A DNA stretch of 64,000 nt, from sequence record NC_041936.1; one strand, given 5' to 3'. Shown in pieces: positions 19,077 through 33,684 of this stretch. Made by a program: the position numbers and the translations under genes. Below the pieces are notes generated by a model. That model made no database searches, was not told the origin of the DNA, and saw only the letters and a list, made by a program, of their open reading frames with translations. The DNA comes from Escherichia phage ECD7. How positions within the stretch are numbered: the stretch's first letter is position 1; every line of letters starts with the position of its first letter.

Positions 19077-19553
19077 TAAATCATTGCAATATTTTAGTGC
19101 CTTAGTTTGAAATTCTGCGCTGTTAAGTTCTTCATAACGGTCATAATCACCGTTTAATGCTGCCTTTCTTGCTTCTTGCTCTATCTGCATGTCAGACATG
19201 ATAATACAGCGATCCCGCGCTTTCATCTTCTCAAGTTGTATAGACTCTTCTTTCTGCTTGCGCAATTCTTCTTGACGCTTCTTTTCTTCTTGTGCTTTCT
19301 CTTCCCGCGCTTCTTTGATTGCATCCTTGAACATCTGCGTTTGTGGTGCTAAACCAACTTTAACGCGATCCACGTCTCGACGTTCCATTTTAGAAATAAA
19401 GCATGATTCGATCTGATCATCACTTGCATATGCTGCTTTACATTCACGAAGCAAGAAAACCGGATCTGATTTAGCATTCATCATAGCTTCCATGTTGGCA
19501 CAACCAGTAAGCATGAATGCAGCCGCAAGACCAATCAGTTTAATCATTTTCAT
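19068..19553 (-). CDS. putative lipoprotein (161 aa)
   Basis: signal peptide with lipobox LTGC; charged coiled-coil middle; translationally coupled to the upstream ADP-ribosyltransferase. Confidence 0.6.
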   Translation of the reverse strand: MKMIKLIGLAAAFMLTGCANMEAMMNAKSDPVFLLRECKAAYASDDQIESCFISKMERRDVDRVKVGLAPQTQMFKDAIKEAREEKAQEEKKRQEELRKQKEESIQLEKMKARDRCIIMSDMQIEQEARKAALNGDYDRYEELNSAEFQTKALKYCNDLAK

Positions 19554-20374
19554 TTAGTCACCTCACCGAAAATTGTAAATTGTCTACGATTCTCATCGCC
19601 GAAAGATTCTACTACGTCGTTTACCTTGACGCAAGTCCCGCGCGGTAAAATTACTTCACATTCGCAAGGGTTCCATGCAATTGACCCAACAACAAAACCT
19701 TTATGATCTTTTACGTCAATTACCCATGATACATTACAAGAATGTTGCATCTTTCCGGTCATTGATTCATATCGATTCTCGCAATAAAGGCTAGTGCTGT
19801 TTGATAGCCATCCTCCAAAGATGATTGGTGTCATGCTGGTTGACACAAAGTTTTTAAAGGTAAATTCCTTATCTTCAATAATACGCTCTATTGTCTGAAT
19901 GTCAAGATGTTGACCGCGATAAAGAGTACCGTTTAACTTTTCGGTTTTATCCATGACACAATCCATCAAATCAACAATCTCTGATATCTCATCGGTCATG
20001 TCTTCTTCCCCTAAGAGAGCACCATTTACCCATTCGTATTGTTCGGACACATAATCACAGATTGCATTATATTCTGCTGGGGTTATGTTGTTATGTTTGT
20101 AATGTTTGAATACATTATCTCCAAAGTCTTCGGAGTGTACTTCATACATCACATTAATGATTTTCTTGACAAATCCATAATCTTGTGTCTCACGCTCAAG
20201 GAAGCGGATAACCTTCACATAATCATCAAAGTTAATCTGATCGCTGATCATCTCAGTGATCATGTAACCATTAATCCCCTCAATGTCATATGTTTCGATG
20301 TAATTATCCATACGTTCCATCATTGATTCGCGTGATTCTTCTGAAAGACGAAAATCCTGTAATTTCTTGAACAT
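19550..20374 (-). CDS. ADP-ribosyltransferase (Alt/Mod-like, 274 aa)
   Basis: R-S-E triad: LYRG, FVSTS, CECE; same motifs as the Alt C-terminus (ILYRG, YVSTS, KECE). Confidence 0.7.
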   Translation of the reverse strand: MFKKLQDFRLSEESRESMMERMDNYIETYDIEGINGYMITEMISDQINFDDYVKVIRFLERETQDYGFVKKIINVMYEVHSEDFGDNVFKHYKHNNITPAEYNAICDYVSEQYEWVNGALLGEEDMTDEISEIVDLMDCVMDKTEKLNGTLYRGQHLDIQTIERIIEDKEFTFKNFVSTSMTPIIFGGWLSNSTSLYCENRYESMTGKMQHSCNVSWVIDVKDHKGFVVGSIAWNPCECEVILPRGTCVKVNDVVESFGDENRRQFTIFGEVTK

Positions 20375-20452: not shown

Positions 20453-22504
20453 TTACATTTTAAATTTATCTGGCATTGCGTCTACAGATACCAGATCAGC
20501 GATAAGCTGACGTAGAGTTGCCTTATCTGCTTTCTTACGTTCGGTTTTAGCTTCGCTAATGAAGCTGGAGAAAGACAGGTCAGAAGCAGGTTTAACAACA
20601 CCCTCACGGATGAATGCATCACCGTCCGCGATCATCTCACCAGATTCTTGTAATGCTGCCAGTTCACTTTTGTTCATAATATGTGCCTCAATGTAATAAG
20701 TTTCTTGTGAATCCGTCGATGCCGTAGCACGAGTTACCGTATCAAAGGATAACACAACACCGCGAGGAAGTAAAATCTCGCATTCTTTGTAAGCAAATGC
20801 TTTGTTACCTACTGGCAATACAGGGATGTTTTCCGCGCCAGCGATAGAGAAAGCAACATTAGCGCCACCTTCACCGCGAGAGCCAGCCATAGAATCAACA
20901 CCAGCAACGGCACTAGCCACGTTTGCATTCCAGCCACCAAAAATATTAGGCGCAAGGGAAGTGCTCACATAGTTTTTAAAGTAAAACGCTTTTTGCTTAC
21001 GTGCAGTTTCCCACATTTGCGACCGGAAGTCCATACCACGATACAGAATAGTACCCGGATCAAGTTTAACACCATAGTTAGAGAAGGCATTATCCAGTGC
21101 ATCGCACATCTTGACCAATTCTTCTGGATCTGCGATTCCCTCAAACTCTTCCAGCTTGCGATCAGTTAGGAAGTTGTTCATATTGATGTATGCTGCATCG
21201 GCATATTCGCTCAACACAAAACCTTCCGCGCCCGGCAGATCAAGATCAATATCTGCCATCATTTCACCCATGTTGCTAGCAATTGCTTCAAACATACCGG
21301 ACGCAACATTACGAAGGGCATCGGTTTTAATCTGGGTGATATGACTACGCAGCATTTCAGCTTTTACATCTGCTGGCATAGACTGGTCTACTCGATCCAT
21401 TGCCAGGGCGGTGATCTTGTTTTCGAATACTTCCTCGCTCATGATTTCTTTTAAGCGTTTGATTGAGGCTGCGATAACTTCCGCAGACAACGGATCATAT
21501 TGATCCTGAACTTTTACCAGTTCGCTTACTGCGTATTTTGCATCGGCTTCGCTTTCAAAAATAGTACGCATGAAACCATAGCGAGTGATAATATCACTTG
21601 TCCAGTCATTCAGAGAACGGGCGGTTGAACGTTCTAAGGCTTGACGGTCAATCAGAGTATTAAACTGTTTCTTAGGTTCGGCTTCGGTGATATCTTCTTC
21701 CGGTTTAAGATTAATTTTTTCTGGATGATTCACGTAGTCGCTGTTATAGGTCGCTTGAGTTTTCAGCATTTCTTCTTTAGTCAAACGAGATTTAGCCGCT
21801 ACGCGTTGTTCTGCTTCCGCGTTTCGTTCTTCTTCTGACACAAGACTAGCCGCATACGCCTCATCTTTAGTCAGAGATTCACCAGTAGCCTTAGATACCC
21901 AGCGATCACCTAAATCACTTTCTACTTTAGTGAACAAGGATTCATCAAGTTTAATCCCTTTAATCTTATCAATCGCCATCCCGCGACGTTTGACAACAAC
22001 TAAAGCGATCTTTTTGCTGGTCATTACTTCCTGCTGGAATACTTCAAACTTCGGTGTACGACGCACCAAACGCTCTATAACGCGCTTAACCAGTTCGGTC
22101 TTACCTTTCATGCGGGATACGTTAAAACGGAACATAACAGCGTCTAATTGCGCTTTACGGGCTGTTTCCATAACCACATCAAAAGCACTTGCCATAACTG
22201 CAATCGGGTTATCACCTAGACCATTTTTAAGCTGTACAATACGACCGCTTTTGTTCATTTCACACAGTACAACGTGTGCGGTCTTGTCACCCATACGAAT
22301 AATTTTAGGTGTTTTGTTGGTGAAGTTGCAAAGACGGACAATCACATCTTTATCGCGTGTCTGTACTGCAAAAAGCTGTTTAGGATTCTGCTTAGGCTTT
22401 AAGCATTGTACCGGAGCAATACTGCCAAAGTTTTCTTCCTCTTCCGTCAACAGCCATTTCTCGAAAGATTCAATCATTAGATCGTCGATTTCTAAGTTAA
22501 ACAT
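20453..22504 (-). CDS. alt: Alt ADP-ribosyltransferase (packaged internal head protein)
   Basis: 683 aa (T4 Alt is 682); C-terminal ART motifs; position after gene 54 as in T4. Confidence 0.85.
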   Translation of the reverse strand: MFNLEIDDLMIESFEKWLLTEEEENFGSIAPVQCLKPKQNPKQLFAVQTRDKDVIVRLCNFTNKTPKIIRMGDKTAHVVLCEMNKSGRIVQLKNGLGDNPIAVMASAFDVVMETARKAQLDAVMFRFNVSRMKGKTELVKRVIERLVRRTPKFEVFQQEVMTSKKIALVVVKRRGMAIDKIKGIKLDESLFTKVESDLGDRWVSKATGESLTKDEAYAASLVSEEERNAEAEQRVAAKSRLTKEEMLKTQATYNSDYVNHPEKINLKPEEDITEAEPKKQFNTLIDRQALERSTARSLNDWTSDIITRYGFMRTIFESEADAKYAVSELVKVQDQYDPLSAEVIAASIKRLKEIMSEEVFENKITALAMDRVDQSMPADVKAEMLRSHITQIKTDALRNVASGMFEAIASNMGEMMADIDLDLPGAEGFVLSEYADAAYINMNNFLTDRKLEEFEGIADPEELVKMCDALDNAFSNYGVKLDPGTILYRGMDFRSQMWETARKQKAFYFKNYVSTSLAPNIFGGWNANVASAVAGVDSMAGSRGEGGANVAFSIAGAENIPVLPVGNKAFAYKECEILLPRGVVLSFDTVTRATASTDSQETYYIEAHIMNKSELAALQESGEMIADGDAFIREGVVKPASDLSFSSFISEAKTERKKADKATLRQLIADLVSVDAMPDKFKM

Positions 22505-22857: not shown

Positions 22858-23376
22858 TTAGTTATTTTTTAATTGCTCATCTTGCAATAGGGCAATCACA
22901 TGCTGGCGATGTTCTTCCGATTGAGGCACACCGAAAAAGTTTGTTTTGTAGAAATACTCTAATCGGTCTTCTCGTGTGCTCTCTTCCATCATGATCGCGG
23001 GTAGTCCGAGATTTCGGAAACGTCGCTTTTCTGCTGGCGTAAAATCACTGTAATACAGCATATAATCATCATTACCAGCAATGCTAAACTCATCCTTCAT
23101 GAAAGAGAATATTGCGTTTAAACGCTGTTTACCGTCCACGATTTCGATTTCATAGCGAGAGCCATCATCAATCTTAGCCATTGCGATAGCACCAACCGGA
23201 AAATCATTAATCAGGTTTTCGATAAACATACGTTTGTTTTCTGTGTCCCATACCAAAGGACGCTGATAATCTGGGTTCATGTTGATATAGCCATCTTCTA
23301 ACCATGCTTCGTAAACAGAGATGACAAAGTTTTTAGTATTGGTATAGTAACGGCGTTTAGGCGTTAAACGGTTCAT
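22858..23376 (-). CDS. DUF262 (ParB-like / GmrSD N-terminal domain) protein
   Basis: DYQRPLVW and IVDGKQRL motifs typical of DUF262; start at internal Met with AGGAG RBS. Confidence 0.55.
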   Translation of the reverse strand: MNRLTPKRRYYTNTKNFVISVYEAWLEDGYINMNPDYQRPLVWDTENKRMFIENLINDFPVGAIAMAKIDDGSRYEIEIVDGKQRLNAIFSFMKDEFSIAGNDDYMLYYSDFTPAEKRRFRNLGLPAIMMEESTREDRLEYFYKTNFFGVPQSEEHRQHVIALLQDEQLKNN

Positions 23377-23377
23377 A

Positions 23378-23707
23378 TTATAGTCTCCTGAATGGATCAT
23401 CACGTAAATCAATATCTTTTAAGAACTCATCCCATGAATGGCGGATATTGTTCTTAATTCTCCAGATAAGCGCAGGGATTGAACGCTCTCCCATCTGGAA
23501 GTAAGGATCATATGATCCGTATGCCCAATATGCTACTACAATTCCACAATCAGCGCAATAGTATTCTATTTCACTTGCTGGCGACCAAAGTCCATCAATA
23601 TGATCAGTGATCTTGCTTTCGATGTTATGGCTATGACAATCAGGGCAACGGATGCAATGACCTTGTTTATCGTAATTTGACGTTAGAGAATACTTAAACA
23701 ATCTCAT
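23378..23707 (-). CDS. zinc-ribbon protein (109 aa)
   Basis: CxxC...CxxC (CIRCPDC ... CADCG); TAATG coupling to the methyltransferase-like gene. Confidence 0.5.
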   Translation of the reverse strand: MRLFKYSLTSNYDKQGHCIRCPDCHSHNIESKITDHIDGLWSPASEIEYYCADCGIVVAYWAYGSYDPYFQMGERSIPALIWRIKNNIRHSWDEFLKDIDLRDDPFRRL

Positions 23708-30038: not shown

Positions 30039-30515
30039 TTATTTTTCTTGATGCTCGCGCTCGTACTTTTCGAAATAAAATTCTACTGGCTGGTCATGAA
30101 TTGACAGCAAGCCAAAGCGTTTAGCCGCTCGCAATCCCATATTGCGCTGAATGTACTTCTGGAAGTTCTCGCGTATACACTTACGCCAGTATTCTAAGCC
30201 CATACAGCTTTTATAAAGATTGCATTGTACACACGCCGGATTCATGTTATCAAGTATATCATGTTCCGGTTTATGCATTCCTACAACCTTATACTTCCAC
30301 GACCCATCATCATTACGGGCAATTCGTCCATTTTCATCATAGACTACCTTTGAGCGTCGCAATACTGGTTTGATATGGTCTGCGTGCCAGCGATCCCCTA
30401 GTTCCTCGCCACAATAGGCACAACGCCCACCGTATTTCATTTTCAGGATCTGGCGTTGCTCTTTCTTTGACAATTTTTTAGGTTTAGGGGCTTTCGCCCC
30501 TTCATTATCACACAT
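30039..30515 (-). CDS. HNH endonuclease (158 aa)
   Basis: CAYCGEELGDRWHADHIKP ... CVQCNLYK HNH zinc-finger nuclease motif; overlaps the 3' end of ligase by 8 nt. Confidence 0.65.
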   Translation of the reverse strand: MCDNEGAKAPKPKKLSKKEQRQILKMKYGGRCAYCGEELGDRWHADHIKPVLRRSKVVYDENGRIARNDDGSWKYKVVGMHKPEHDILDNMNPACVQCNLYKSCMGLEYWRKCIRENFQKYIQRNMGLRAAKRFGLLSIHDQPVEFYFEKYEREHQEK

Positions 30516-32010
30516 CGAATACCTCTTTTACTGTATTTGCAGTGGTCTTGTCGTAGCGAATACGTTTGATGATTGGGAGAAATAAAGAGAACTCCGGTTC
30601 ATCTTCTTTACGTGATTTGCTGCGGATATACCCGTTGCATGTCATCTCAATGACTTTTCCAATCAGGTTATGACGGTCAGTCCATAACATTTCTCGGTCG
30701 AGTTCATTTCGACGATCGAACGGAATTACACGTTCAGTACCATCATCACCTTTTTCGGTTGTAGTGTCGGTTAATCCCGATCCGGTGTTAGTCATCATTC
30801 GTCCGCACGCACTACGGACAGTAAAACCGCCTACCTTATTGGGGTCTTTACTATGCGGATATACATCAACAATTTCCGCGTCGAAGTCAATCACTTCTTT
30901 AAATTTAACCTGATCTTTACTACGGCGATCTTCAAATACACCATGTAAATTTTTAAGGATAATACCTTCTAAGCCCATGTTTACATAGCGATGATATACT
31001 TCGCGAGCTTCATCGATATTGTTAACTACAGTGTTTTCGATTATCTGAACACGAGGATCGTTAAGTTCTTCAACAATCTGTTTTAGCTCTTCGAATCGAT
31101 CTTTATATTGCTTCGTTGCTTTCTCGTTTCCGTAATACACATCACGGTCGATAACATCCCAGACAGTGTAAACAATACATTGGGCTTCTTCTTTTGGAAT
31201 AGTTCCTTTCAGTGATTTGTTGAGGATACCATTTCCGGTCTGACGATCTGCAACAACGGATTCTTTCACCGCTTCCGCTACTGGCGTTAATGGCATTTCC
31301 TCTTCTTCAAATATCCATGACAGAGTACCATCATAAACGCTCTCAACGAAGTTCTGCGCTGGTGTTTGCGAAAGGGTAGGCATATATACCAATTCGCCAT
31401 CTAGAACAATTCCACGGCCTCGTAGACTCTCTAAAACCGCAAACAAATCATCAAGCCCTTGATAGGTATTACCTGAACGGGTATAGATTGCTAATGTTTC
31501 CCCGTCAATATCAGCCATACCACGAGCGCCATCGCTTTTAAGTTGTGCATACGCCGGATATTTGATATTGGCAATGGTCTTATCAGAACATGACGATGCA
31601 AGGTGGCACGGCTGCTGGGGGATCAGTTTCTTCCATACCTTGTTTGCAGTGGTAGCGGAACAACCGCATTCCAGGTCACGATTCAGGACCATCATTGCAA
31701 CTTTAGCATCATCTTCTGACAAGCAAGTCAGAGTATCGGTAACTAGCTGTAATGCTGCATTACCAGTTACTTGACGTGTGGCAAGTTTATTTTTAAAGAC
31801 TTGTAATGCACCGGATAAAGACAATACAGACGAATAGCGCGATGGTTTATCGTATTTCTTTACGCCAAACGTAACCTGTTTGCAATATGCCAGATAAAAG
31901 CATTCTTTCAGTGTTTCATTGCTTGCAGATTCTTTCAGGATCTTTTCTTTCAGCGATGTTTTGTCTGTTGCTGCAAGCTGATTAATGATATTAAGAATTG
32001 ACATTTTCAC
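30508..32010 (-). CDS. 30: ATP-dependent DNA ligase gp30
   Basis: 500 aa; GLEGIILKN, KGTIPKEEAQC, FKEVIDFDAEIVDVYPH colinear with recalled T4 DNA ligase. Confidence 0.9.
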   Translation of the reverse strand: MKMSILNIINQLAATDKTSLKEKILKESASNETLKECFYLAYCKQVTFGVKKYDKPSRYSSVLSLSGALQVFKNKLATRQVTGNAALQLVTDTLTCLSEDDAKVAMMVLNRDLECGCSATTANKVWKKLIPQQPCHLASSCSDKTIANIKYPAYAQLKSDGARGMADIDGETLAIYTRSGNTYQGLDDLFAVLESLRGRGIVLDGELVYMPTLSQTPAQNFVESVYDGTLSWIFEEEEMPLTPVAEAVKESVVADRQTGNGILNKSLKGTIPKEEAQCIVYTVWDVIDRDVYYGNEKATKQYKDRFEELKQIVEELNDPRVQIIENTVVNNIDEAREVYHRYVNMGLEGIILKNLHGVFEDRRSKDQVKFKEVIDFDAEIVDVYPHSKDPNKVGGFTVRSACGRMMTNTGSGLTDTTTEKGDDGTERVIPFDRRNELDREMLWTDRHNLIGKVIEMTCNGYIRSKSRKEDEPEFSLFLPIIKRIRYDKTTANTVKEVFDV

Positions 32011-32470
32011 CTCGTTTTGTTAAACGTTCACGAATATCATTGAGGATACTACAAAATTCTGATTCGGTCAATATGGTCTTTAACGGATCAGTTCCACCTA
32101 TACTATGACGTAATTTCTTATTTCCGGTAGCGAGTAATGCTTTACAAAATTCTGGGTTATTCCGTGCCATCGTAACAAATGCCAGGTGCACCAGTCTGTA
32201 ATAATGCTCACTCATTCGATGAATCGGGCGACCCTGAAAATATAGCATGTGATTCTCAATCTTTTCAGTCCTTCCGGTTCTTTTTGCCTTGCCACCGTGC
32301 ATCAAAAAGATTTCTCTTTGCTTTTCTGGATTCTTGAATCTTAATCCCTGTAAAAATCCTTCTGTGCTGTTAATATCGCAACCAAATAGACGGAATGGTC
32401 TTTTATTGAAGTTGCTCAATTCACCCGATGGATAAGGTCCACCCGCATAGATATCAATTTCAGAAGTCAT
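31991..32470 (-). CDS. NADAR (YbiA/DUF1768)-like protein
   Basis: ELSNFNKRPFRLFGCDINSTEGFLQGLRF and ALLATGNKKL resemble NADAR-family signatures. Confidence 0.5.
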   Translation of the reverse strand: MTSEIDIYAGGPYPSGELSNFNKRPFRLFGCDINSTEGFLQGLRFKNPEKQREIFLMHGGKAKRTGRTEKIENHMLYFQGRPIHRMSEHYYRLVHLAFVTMARNNPEFCKALLATGNKKLRHSIGGTDPLKTILTESEFCSILNDIRERLTKRGENVNS

Positions 32471-32624
32471 TGAAACTAATCTCGCTAATCATAGAGAACG
32501 GATCATAATCGTCATGAGGAATATCGATAGTAATCGAATGAGGATTTACCCATACACCAAACTGGTCTTCTTCGGTGAATACTTCGGTATGGATTTCTTG
32601 GATGTTTACATTCATAGTTTTCAT
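32460..32624 (-). CDS. small hypothetical protein (54 aa)
   Basis: ORF below the track cutoff, overlapping the NADAR gene start. Confidence 0.3.
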   Translation of the reverse strand: MKTMNVNIQEIHTEVFTEEDQFGVWVNPHSITIDIPHDDYDPFSMISEISFNDF

Positions 32625-32706
32625 AATAAAAATTCCTTAATAATCAATAACTTACAAAATCATATAGCCAAAATATAGCGGGATTATTACCCGCCGTTTA
32701 AAATCA

Positions 32707-33066: not shown

Positions 33067-33684
33067 TTATTTATATTTCGCGACCTTTGGATTTCGCCGC
33101 AGACCGGAATGTATTTGCGCTATACAACAATAAGAAACATTAAACATATCAGCTATAATTTGCTTCTTAACTTTTCCTTTAAGCCGCATTATTTCTTCGA
33201 CTTGCGCATTTGTCAGTTTTGCCCGTGAGTGGTTTTCACCGACATTGTTATTGAGTCCAGTTCTAAATGAATGTCTCATATTTTCTAGTAAGGTTACTAT
33301 TTCTAGATTCCACACATAATTGCAGGTTTTTACACCATTGATGTGATTAACCTCAAGTCCGGTAACGTCTCCTAGAAATGCATTTGCTACAAGTCGATGT
33401 ATCTTTTCGGCTTTAACTGAGATTTTACCATTGTCTTTTTGTTTTGACAATGTTGAATAATAATATCCATATCGGTCTAAAATTGGTTTTATTATTTTAC
33501 CAGCCCGTTTTTGTTTTACGAGCTTAATATTACCGGGAGAAACTTCTCTATAAAATTCGATACTTCGGTCAATAGATCTCAATCTACCATAATTAGAGAT
33601 TTCATACCACGGATAACCTACAGCTTGTCTCCATTCTTCCGGCGCTGGTAATACGATATTATCATCTTTTGTTTCCATTGTCAA
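33067..33684 (-). CDS. HNH homing endonuclease (NUMOD4 + HNH_3 type)
   Basis: WYEISNYGRLRS and EVNHINGVK...NLE motifs; freestanding between 31 and cd. Confidence 0.65.
   Translation of the reverse strand: MTMETKDDNIVLPAPEEWRQAVGYPWYEISNYGRLRSIDRSIEFYREVSPGNIKLVKQKRAGKIIKPILDRYGYYYSTLSKQKDNGKISVKAEKIHRLVANAFLGDVTGLEVNHINGVKTCNYVWNLEIVTLLENMRHSFRTGLNNNVGENHSRAKLTNAQVEEIMRLKGKVKKQIIADMFNVSYCCIAQIHSGLRRNPKVAKYK

Follow-up and report, generated by a model that had tools for sequence, protein, structure and literature searches.

The 159-amino-acid open reading frame (ORF) beside the DNA ligase gene of Escherichia phage ECD7 (NC_041936.1), at positions 31991..32470 on the minus strand, is, to judge from its T4 counterpart, probably adfN, that is, an orphan antitoxin-like N-glycosidase that would remove DarT1-type guanine ADP-ribosylation from phage DNA, its in vivo role included. 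All positions refer to the window, meaning the whole 64,000-nucleotide stretch of ECD7 DNA that was analyzed. Sequence comparison identifies this ORF as the orthologue of T4 gene 30.3 in Krischvirus, and it would encode a phage-type NADAR ADP-ribosylglycohydrolase. Because the T4 gp30.3 family was reported to be active in vitro in 2024 and to be the anti-DarTG1 factor of T4 in 2025, the NADAR and anti-DarT finding is already known, and the only place left for new biology is a natural Lys-to-Arg variant at a mutationally characterized position. Orthology, the fold, conserved active-site positions, an intact C-terminus and purifying selection were all observed for ECD7 adfN itself.

The ORF starts with an ATG at 32470 and ends with a TAA at 31991-31993. 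A preliminary description of this DNA had placed it on the 5′ side of ligase gene 30 and quoted a NADAR/YbiA-like signature from it. The ORF proved real, lying on the same (minus) strand as the ligase gene and overlapping its start, and all motifs of the signature were found, namely LSNF at residues 18-21, STEGFLQGLRF at 35-45 and ALLATG at 111-116, the dots in the quoted signature being approximate spacings only. A chance ORF is excluded by an E value of 1.5e-39 to the Pfam family PF08010, by homologues in 1508 phage records and by a pN/pS of 0.045. ECD7 is a coliphage of T4 type, RB49-like and placed in the genus Krischvirus; its region is 97.7% identical to that of vB_EcoM_G2494 (2.1 kb compared), and the ECD7 protein is 100% identical in phage MIZ4.

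Membership of the ORF in PF08010 ("Bacteriophage protein GP30.3") is a near certainty. The match, at 135.4 bits (cutoff 36), was full length, with residues 13-148 aligned to profile positions 2-138 of 138. Furthermore, the ORF matched phrog_652 (E=1.7e-45) and was 39% identical to T4 gp30.3 across 151 residues, end to end (E=5e-31). The family was represented by 987 sequences at 50% identity in a metagenome-scale library, and its many hosts include those of Acinetobacter, Aeromonas, Vibrio and Rhizobium phages. Domain fusions were considered as a functional clue and discarded as uninformative, the partners being mostly unannotated apart from one Metallophos and one LRR domain. No NCBIfam model matched the adfN ORF, its 54-aa neighbor or the two ADP-ribosyltransferases (ARTs) of the window.

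The Pfam NADAR profile PF08719, which covers the YbiA/BC4488 families, scored 16.3 bits (E=0.012), short of its cutoff of 35.1, so the ORF is related to PF08719 at the fold or superfamily level only. In spite of this sub-threshold score, fold searches found nothing except NADARs. The AlphaFold2 model of the ORF (pLDDT 94.2, pTM 0.89) matched NADAR structures only, with Foldseek E values of 2.9e-6 for 2b3w and 7e-4 for 8bau and above 3 for all others, and family profile searches reached E=7e-4 with YbiA and E=0.36 with PnNADAR. The model has the helical core with small flanking beta-sheets of the NADAR (YbiA) fold and no extra domains. At the fold level, the predicted structure is thus an unambiguous NADAR. 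The top match of a single-sequence phmmer search in the PDB, 7vhv (a D-alanyl carrier protein ligase, E=4.3e-4), was rejected as a chance hit, because it aligned a helical stretch with an unrelated C-terminal subdomain and was absent from both fold searches, and because the profiles found only YbiA and PnNADAR.

The neighboring gene at 30508..32004 (minus strand), taken for gene 30 in the preliminary description, is indeed an ATP-dependent DNA ligase gene; it matched PF01068 (E=3.4e-22) and is named DNA ligase in G2494 and FL37. Its ATG at 32004 is preceded by a GAGGTG Shine-Dalgarno sequence, both lying within the last adfN codons, and the adfN TAA falls 11-14 nt inside the ligase ORF. At the other end, the stop of a 54-aa ORF (32460..32624, minus strand; phrog_15277, E=2.7e-41), called gp31.-1 in RB49, shares an 11-nt overlap with the adfN start, and these two genes are probably translationally coupled. 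The 54-aa ORF was also considered as a homologue of T4 30.4 and rejected, having no similarity to it. A pattern scan located a terminator-like hairpin (32677..32695, minus strand) after gene 31 and upstream of the run of gp31.-1, adfN, ligase and HNH genes, and a terminator is annotated in G2494. Between this hairpin and the 54-aa ORF, a scan for sigma-70 promoters yielded no convincing one, nothing exceeding the shuffled expectation. adfN sits in a tightly packed, operon-like run.

The gene order in ECD7 is 30, adfN, gp31.-1, 31, (HNH), 31.1, cd and pseT, which equals the T4 order minus 30.1, 30.2 and 30.4-30.9/rIII, plus two inserted HNH endonuclease genes. Since the slot between genes 30 and 31 is kept, adfN is also the positional orthologue of T4 30.3, and it abuts the ligase gene directly because 30.1 and 30.2 are absent. 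The same arrangement occurs in Acinetobacter phage AB-Navy97, whose homologue is one gene away from the ligase gene. A general functional coupling with the ligase was ruled out, as T4 has two genes between 30.3 and the ligase gene, the homologue of Aeromonas phage Riv-10 lies inside a tRNA cluster rather than beside a ligase gene, and that of Rhizobium phage RL2RES lies beside DNA helicase and endonuclease V genes instead. The adjacency of adfN and the ligase gene is therefore inherited synteny, not conserved functional coupling.

For ECD7, we infer the substrate and the anti-DarTG1 role from experiments on the T4 protein. Earlier bioinformatic studies had flagged a phage branch of the NADAR superfamily (via Schuller et al. 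2023, PMC11543638), and T4 gp30.3 was subsequently renamed AdfN, for anti-DarT factor NADAR (Johannesman et al., Nat Commun 2025, PMC11825919). According to that study, purified T4 AdfN cleans DNA modified by DarT1 of its ADP-ribose in vitro, T4 needs adfN against DarT1 during infection, and ectopic adfN-T4 gives RB69, whose own adfN allele is defective through a frameshift, its plaques back on DarTG1 hosts. The protein targets guanosine adducts and has no effect on the thymidine-modifying DarTG2, and two-hybrid testing showed no binding to DarT1. The E36A mutant was inactive in vitro and rescued only partly in vivo, K43A also gave only partial rescue, and a C-terminal truncation likewise weakened rescue in vivo (PMC11825919). 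Independently, T4 NADAR was found to act in vitro on guanosine-ADP-ribosylated (G-ADPr) DNA and RNA, though in uninfected cells it did not serve as an antitoxin (Cihlova et al., Toxins 2024, PMC11125620). Moreover, 30.3 transposon insertions were lost only with DarTG1 present (HIDEN-SEQ preprint 10.1101/2025.11.20.689424). Within PF08010, guanosine-ADP-ribose glycohydrolase activity on DNA has been demonstrated for the T4 protein alone, and protection from DarTG1 for the T4 and T2 alleles; a literature search combining DarTG and Krischvirus found no paper. T4 AdfN is fully effective only in T-even infection (PMC11825919), which suggests a possible need for a phage helper factor and counts against a straight transfer of the T4 result to Krischvirus. 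The 39% identity to the tested T4 enzyme is likewise a point against full transfer of the T4 function. The anti-DarT counter-defense proposed in the preliminary description, together with its NADAR reading, nevertheless appears well founded, given the orthology to T4 AdfN and the published activity of that enzyme.

In characterized NADARs, a Glu contacts the distal ribose (E43 in PnNADAR, E88 in E. coli C7 and E36 in T4; PMC11543638, PMC11825919), a Lys seven residues after this Glu binds the phosphates (K50, K95 and K43, respectively), and the last-strand residue is Glu in YbiA-type, Asp in DarG1 and His in phage NADARs (PMC11125620, PMC11543638). In ECD7, the predicted catalytic glutamate is E37 (codon GAA, 32360..32362, minus strand), which lines up with the Glu of YbiA and PnNADAR and is shared by 157 of 162 family representatives. 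The signature His of phage NADARs is H122 (codon CAT, 32105..32107, minus strand), found in 158 of the 162, which replaces the Glu of the YbiA family and the Asp of the DarG1 family and directly follows a predicted strand at residues 119-121. Both residues were invariant in two alignments. The third position, aligned to the phosphate-binding Lys of YbiA and PnNADAR, is occupied by R44 (codon AGA, 32339..32341, minus strand); across the 162 family sequences it is Lys in 148, Arg in 9 (~6%) and another residue or a gap in 5. Conservation of the NADAR catalytic residues, which had been proposed as a check, was thus confirmed for E37 and H122; at the phosphate-binding position, R44 is basic like Lys without being Lys. 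The AlphaFold2 model also predicted, with high pLDDT, an intact C-terminal alpha-helix at residues 136-157 (32000..32065, minus strand), and the ORF extends 7 residues past the C-terminus of T4 gp30.3. Loss of the last 15 residues, as in RB69 or a truncated T4 allele, leads to reduced activity (PMC11825919). We consider the enzyme likely to be catalytically competent.

The following course of events would fit these observations. Host DarT1 of a DarTG1 system would ADP-ribosylate guanosines in the replicating phage DNA, and AdfN, a minimal, core-only N-glycosidase of NADAR fold, would bind the ADP-ribose on the DNA, with E37 contacting the distal ribose, R44 standing in for the phosphate-binding Lys and H122 for the catalytic Glu or Asp. 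The bond between the ribose and guanine N2 would then be cleaved, restoring unmodified DNA so that replication may continue.

The closest known system, T4 gp30.3/AdfN, shares with the ECD7 protein the PF08010 family with end-to-end similarity, the core-only NADAR fold, the Glu and the His, the intact C-terminal helix and the genomic slot between genes 30 and 31. The two differ in K43 of T4 versus R44 of ECD7, in the seven extra C-terminal residues of the latter and in the upstream neighbor, which is 30.4 in T4 and the unrelated 54-aa ORF in ECD7. The DarG1 antitoxins used for comparison were those of E. coli C7 and Geobacter/Trichlorobacter lovleyi, with PDB 8bat (Schuller et al., Mol Cell 2023, PMC11543638). 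Their NADARs are encoded beside DarT1 and have an N-terminal extension and a catalytic Asp (D171), whereas ECD7 adfN is an orphan without a DarT1 partner, its neighbors being the ligase gene, the 54-aa ORF, gp31 and HNH endonuclease genes, and its product is core only, with His at that position. YbiA (PDB 2b3w) and the Phytophthora NADAR with ADP-ribose (PDB 8bau) are 18-22% identical to the ECD7 protein and have Glu where it has H122; YbiA, unlike ECD7 adfN, is a housekeeping N-glycosidase of riboflavin intermediates. Two further phage NADARs, AdfN-Bas32 (T5-like) and AdfN-Bas60 (Vequintavirinae), counter DarTG1 by guanosine-specific de-ADP-ribosylation (PMC11825919), but they belong to other, independently acquired NADAR clades and work without the T-even context, while the ECD7 ORF is of the T4-type clade. 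The same strategy of an orphan antitoxin-like hydrolase clearing ADP-ribose from phage DNA is followed by T4 Tk.4, or AdfM, which is anti-DarTG2 (10.1101/2025.11.20.689424); AdfM, however, has an unrelated macrodomain fold and acts on the thymidine adduct, and the ECD7 window holds no copy of it.

Among the positions mutated in the T4 enzyme, R44 is, on alignment, the one departure of the ECD7 protein. The equivalent exchange K95R in the NADAR of E. coli C7 DarG1 kept guanine-ADPr hydrolysis in vitro and lost in vivo rescue from DarT1 (PMC11543638), so ECD7 adfN naturally carries a change that disables in vivo rescue there. This finding, together with the partial rescue by T4 K43A (PMC11825919), would favor an attenuated allele, in which the R44 enzyme is too inefficient to protect and R44 Krischviruses are DarTG1-sensitive or reliant on other factors. 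Site 44 is also polymorphic, since the near-identical Krischvirus allele P0171 carries K44; this K44 lies within a patch of 11 substitutions that looks recombinant from its sequence. Against attenuation, comparison with the FL37 allele gave 18 synonymous and 3 nonsynonymous differences (pN/pS ~0.045), which places adfN under strong purifying selection, and a decaying gene would be expected to gain frameshifts, as in RB69. Furthermore, R44 is the majority state in Krischvirus, occurring in 8 of the 9 alleles sampled, with K44 in 1, and also in FL37, and Arg at this position arose independently in at least 5 other, more distant lineages, all of which keep E37 and H122. The recurrence of Arg and the strong purifying selection speak for a phage enzyme that tolerates Arg, and we consider an attenuated allele unlikely. 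That the Lys-to-Arg change is functionally meaningful in any way, be it through a retuned efficiency or adduct specificity or through DarTG1 sensitivity of R44 phages, seems doubtful, if slightly less so.

It is similarly improbable that adfN encodes an active NADAR glycohydrolase whose main substrate is something other than DarT1-modified DNA, such as guanosine-ADP-ribosylated RNA, adducts of other, possibly undiscovered, base-directed ART toxins or soluble ADP-ribose derivatives. T4 NADAR does remove G-ADPr from RNA (PMC11125620), Johannesman et al. speculate on further defenses that ADP-ribosylate DNA or RNA (PMC11825919), and homologues occur in phages of many hosts. However, DarTG1 counter-defense, seen by two independent approaches, is the sole phenotype that the family is known to have in vivo; T4 NADAR is weaker on RNA than C7 NADAR, and NADARs were inactive on phosphate-end RNA adducts. 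As to other bases, none of the phage AdfN proteins was effective against DarTG2, which modifies thymidine (PMC11825919), and phage NADAR is absent from the listed C-ADPr-reversing enzymes. A soluble derivative, a possibility raised from Iyer et al. 2022, is without support for the T4-type clade. A regulator of the phage's own ADP-ribosylation, also suggested in the preliminary description, finds no support and is far less probable still. The two ART genes that had been noted in the window are both present, match PF03496 and are Alt-like, one being the full-length Alt orthologue (20453..22504) and the other a 274-aa paralogue of the Alt catalytic domain (19550..20374). They are the only ARTs in the window and lie ~10 kb from adfN, and the order alt, 30, 30.3 is kept in T4 and AB-Navy97, which would favor a reversal or tuning of their activity by adfN. 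Both, however, showed the Alt-type R / S-T-S / E-x-E motifs in alignments. The full-length ART is 27% identical to T4 Alt over its whole length (E=2e-61), and T4 Alt, annotated as an RNA polymerase ADP-ribosyltransferase, is specific for protein arginine. NADAR activity, by contrast, is documented only on nucleobase N-glycosidic adducts; targeted searches within the text of the papers documenting it found no activity on protein substrates. In addition, the homologues of Riv-10 and RL2RES are not near any ART. A non-catalytic role, in which adfN would act as an ADP-ribose-binding or defense-protein-binding inhibitor, is equally hard to credit. Another phage NADAR-like protein, described in 2024 as countering Retron-Eco1, reportedly works without enzymatic activity. 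Such a binding role is without support for the T4-type clade, and the near-invariance of E37 and H122 is what one would expect of a catalyst; T4 AdfN, for its part, showed no DarT1 binding in the two-hybrid assay, and its E36A mutant was inactive (PMC11825919).

The removal of guanine ADP-ribosylation from phage DNA by AdfN makes this family a textbook-in-the-making case of a lytic phage with an orphan antitoxin-like enzyme that undoes a host DNA modification. ECD7 adds no new biology to it unless the R44 variant behaves unlike the T4 enzyme; if it made its carriers DarTG1-sensitive, residue 44 alone would naturally set the range of DarT-armed hosts open to RB49-like phages, and R44 would be the natural counterpart of the separation-of-function mutant K95R of DarG1. 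Recognizing adfN annotates a "hypothetical protein" in ~58 Krischvirus genomes, and its identity predicts DarTG1 resistance of Krischviruses, which is relevant to the choice of therapy phages against DarTG1-carrying E. coli.

Immediately upstream of adfN, the gp30.3 gene of ECD7, lies a 54-aa ORF (32460..32624, minus strand; phrog_15277). It is named gp31.-1 in RB49, and its 3′ end, including the stop codon, shares 11 nt with the start of adfN. In T4, the equivalent slot is filled by 30.4, to which the 54-aa ORF is unrelated. Given that a T-even helper factor is thought to be necessary for T4 AdfN, the small conserved neighbors of adfN might merit attention. The locus is also flanked on both sides by HNH-type endonuclease genes on the minus strand: one (30039..30515, PF01844) overlaps the 3′ end of the ligase gene, and the other, of the homing-endonuclease type with NUMOD4 and HNH_3 domains (33067..33684), is inserted between genes 31 and 31.1. 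Relative to T4, these two endonuclease genes are probably mobile insertions.

P0171, a Krischvirus gp30.3 allele on Logan/ENA contigs of up to 171.7 kb, differs little from the protein encoded in the window. It has K44, at the ADP-ribose phosphate-binding position, and 11 substitutions clustered between residues 44 and 76. This pattern suggests that the phosphate-binding position of P0171 lies inside a recombinant patch.

The transferase region, likewise on the minus strand, contains a full-length Alt orthologue (683 aa, 20453..22504) followed by a short paralogue comprising the Alt catalytic domain only (274 aa, 19550..20374). The R, STS, and ExE motifs of the short paralogue are intact. Since T4 carries only degenerate alt.-1/-2 fragments at the same place, the short paralogue may be a functional extra transferase. 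Just upstream of alt, a 184-aa ORF (22858..23412, minus strand) matches PF03235, the DUF262 domain found at the N-terminus of GmrSD (E=5.9e-20), which is unusual for a phage because this domain normally belongs to a type IV restriction enzyme against modified DNA.

Some family representatives (P0020, P0024, P0044, P0053, P0062, and P0086) carry the gp30.3-type NADAR domain in fused form, including as tandem NADAR duplicates with the Glu lost from one copy, or joined to a calcineurin-like phosphoesterase, a BspA-type LRR, or some 320 aa of unannotated N-terminal sequence. Outside Straboviridae, the homologue in Rhizobium phage RL2RES (record L006, 3001..3453) has an ATP-dependent DNA helicase immediately downstream and endonuclease V nearby. 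These DNA-repair surroundings are consistent with a DNA-directed role.
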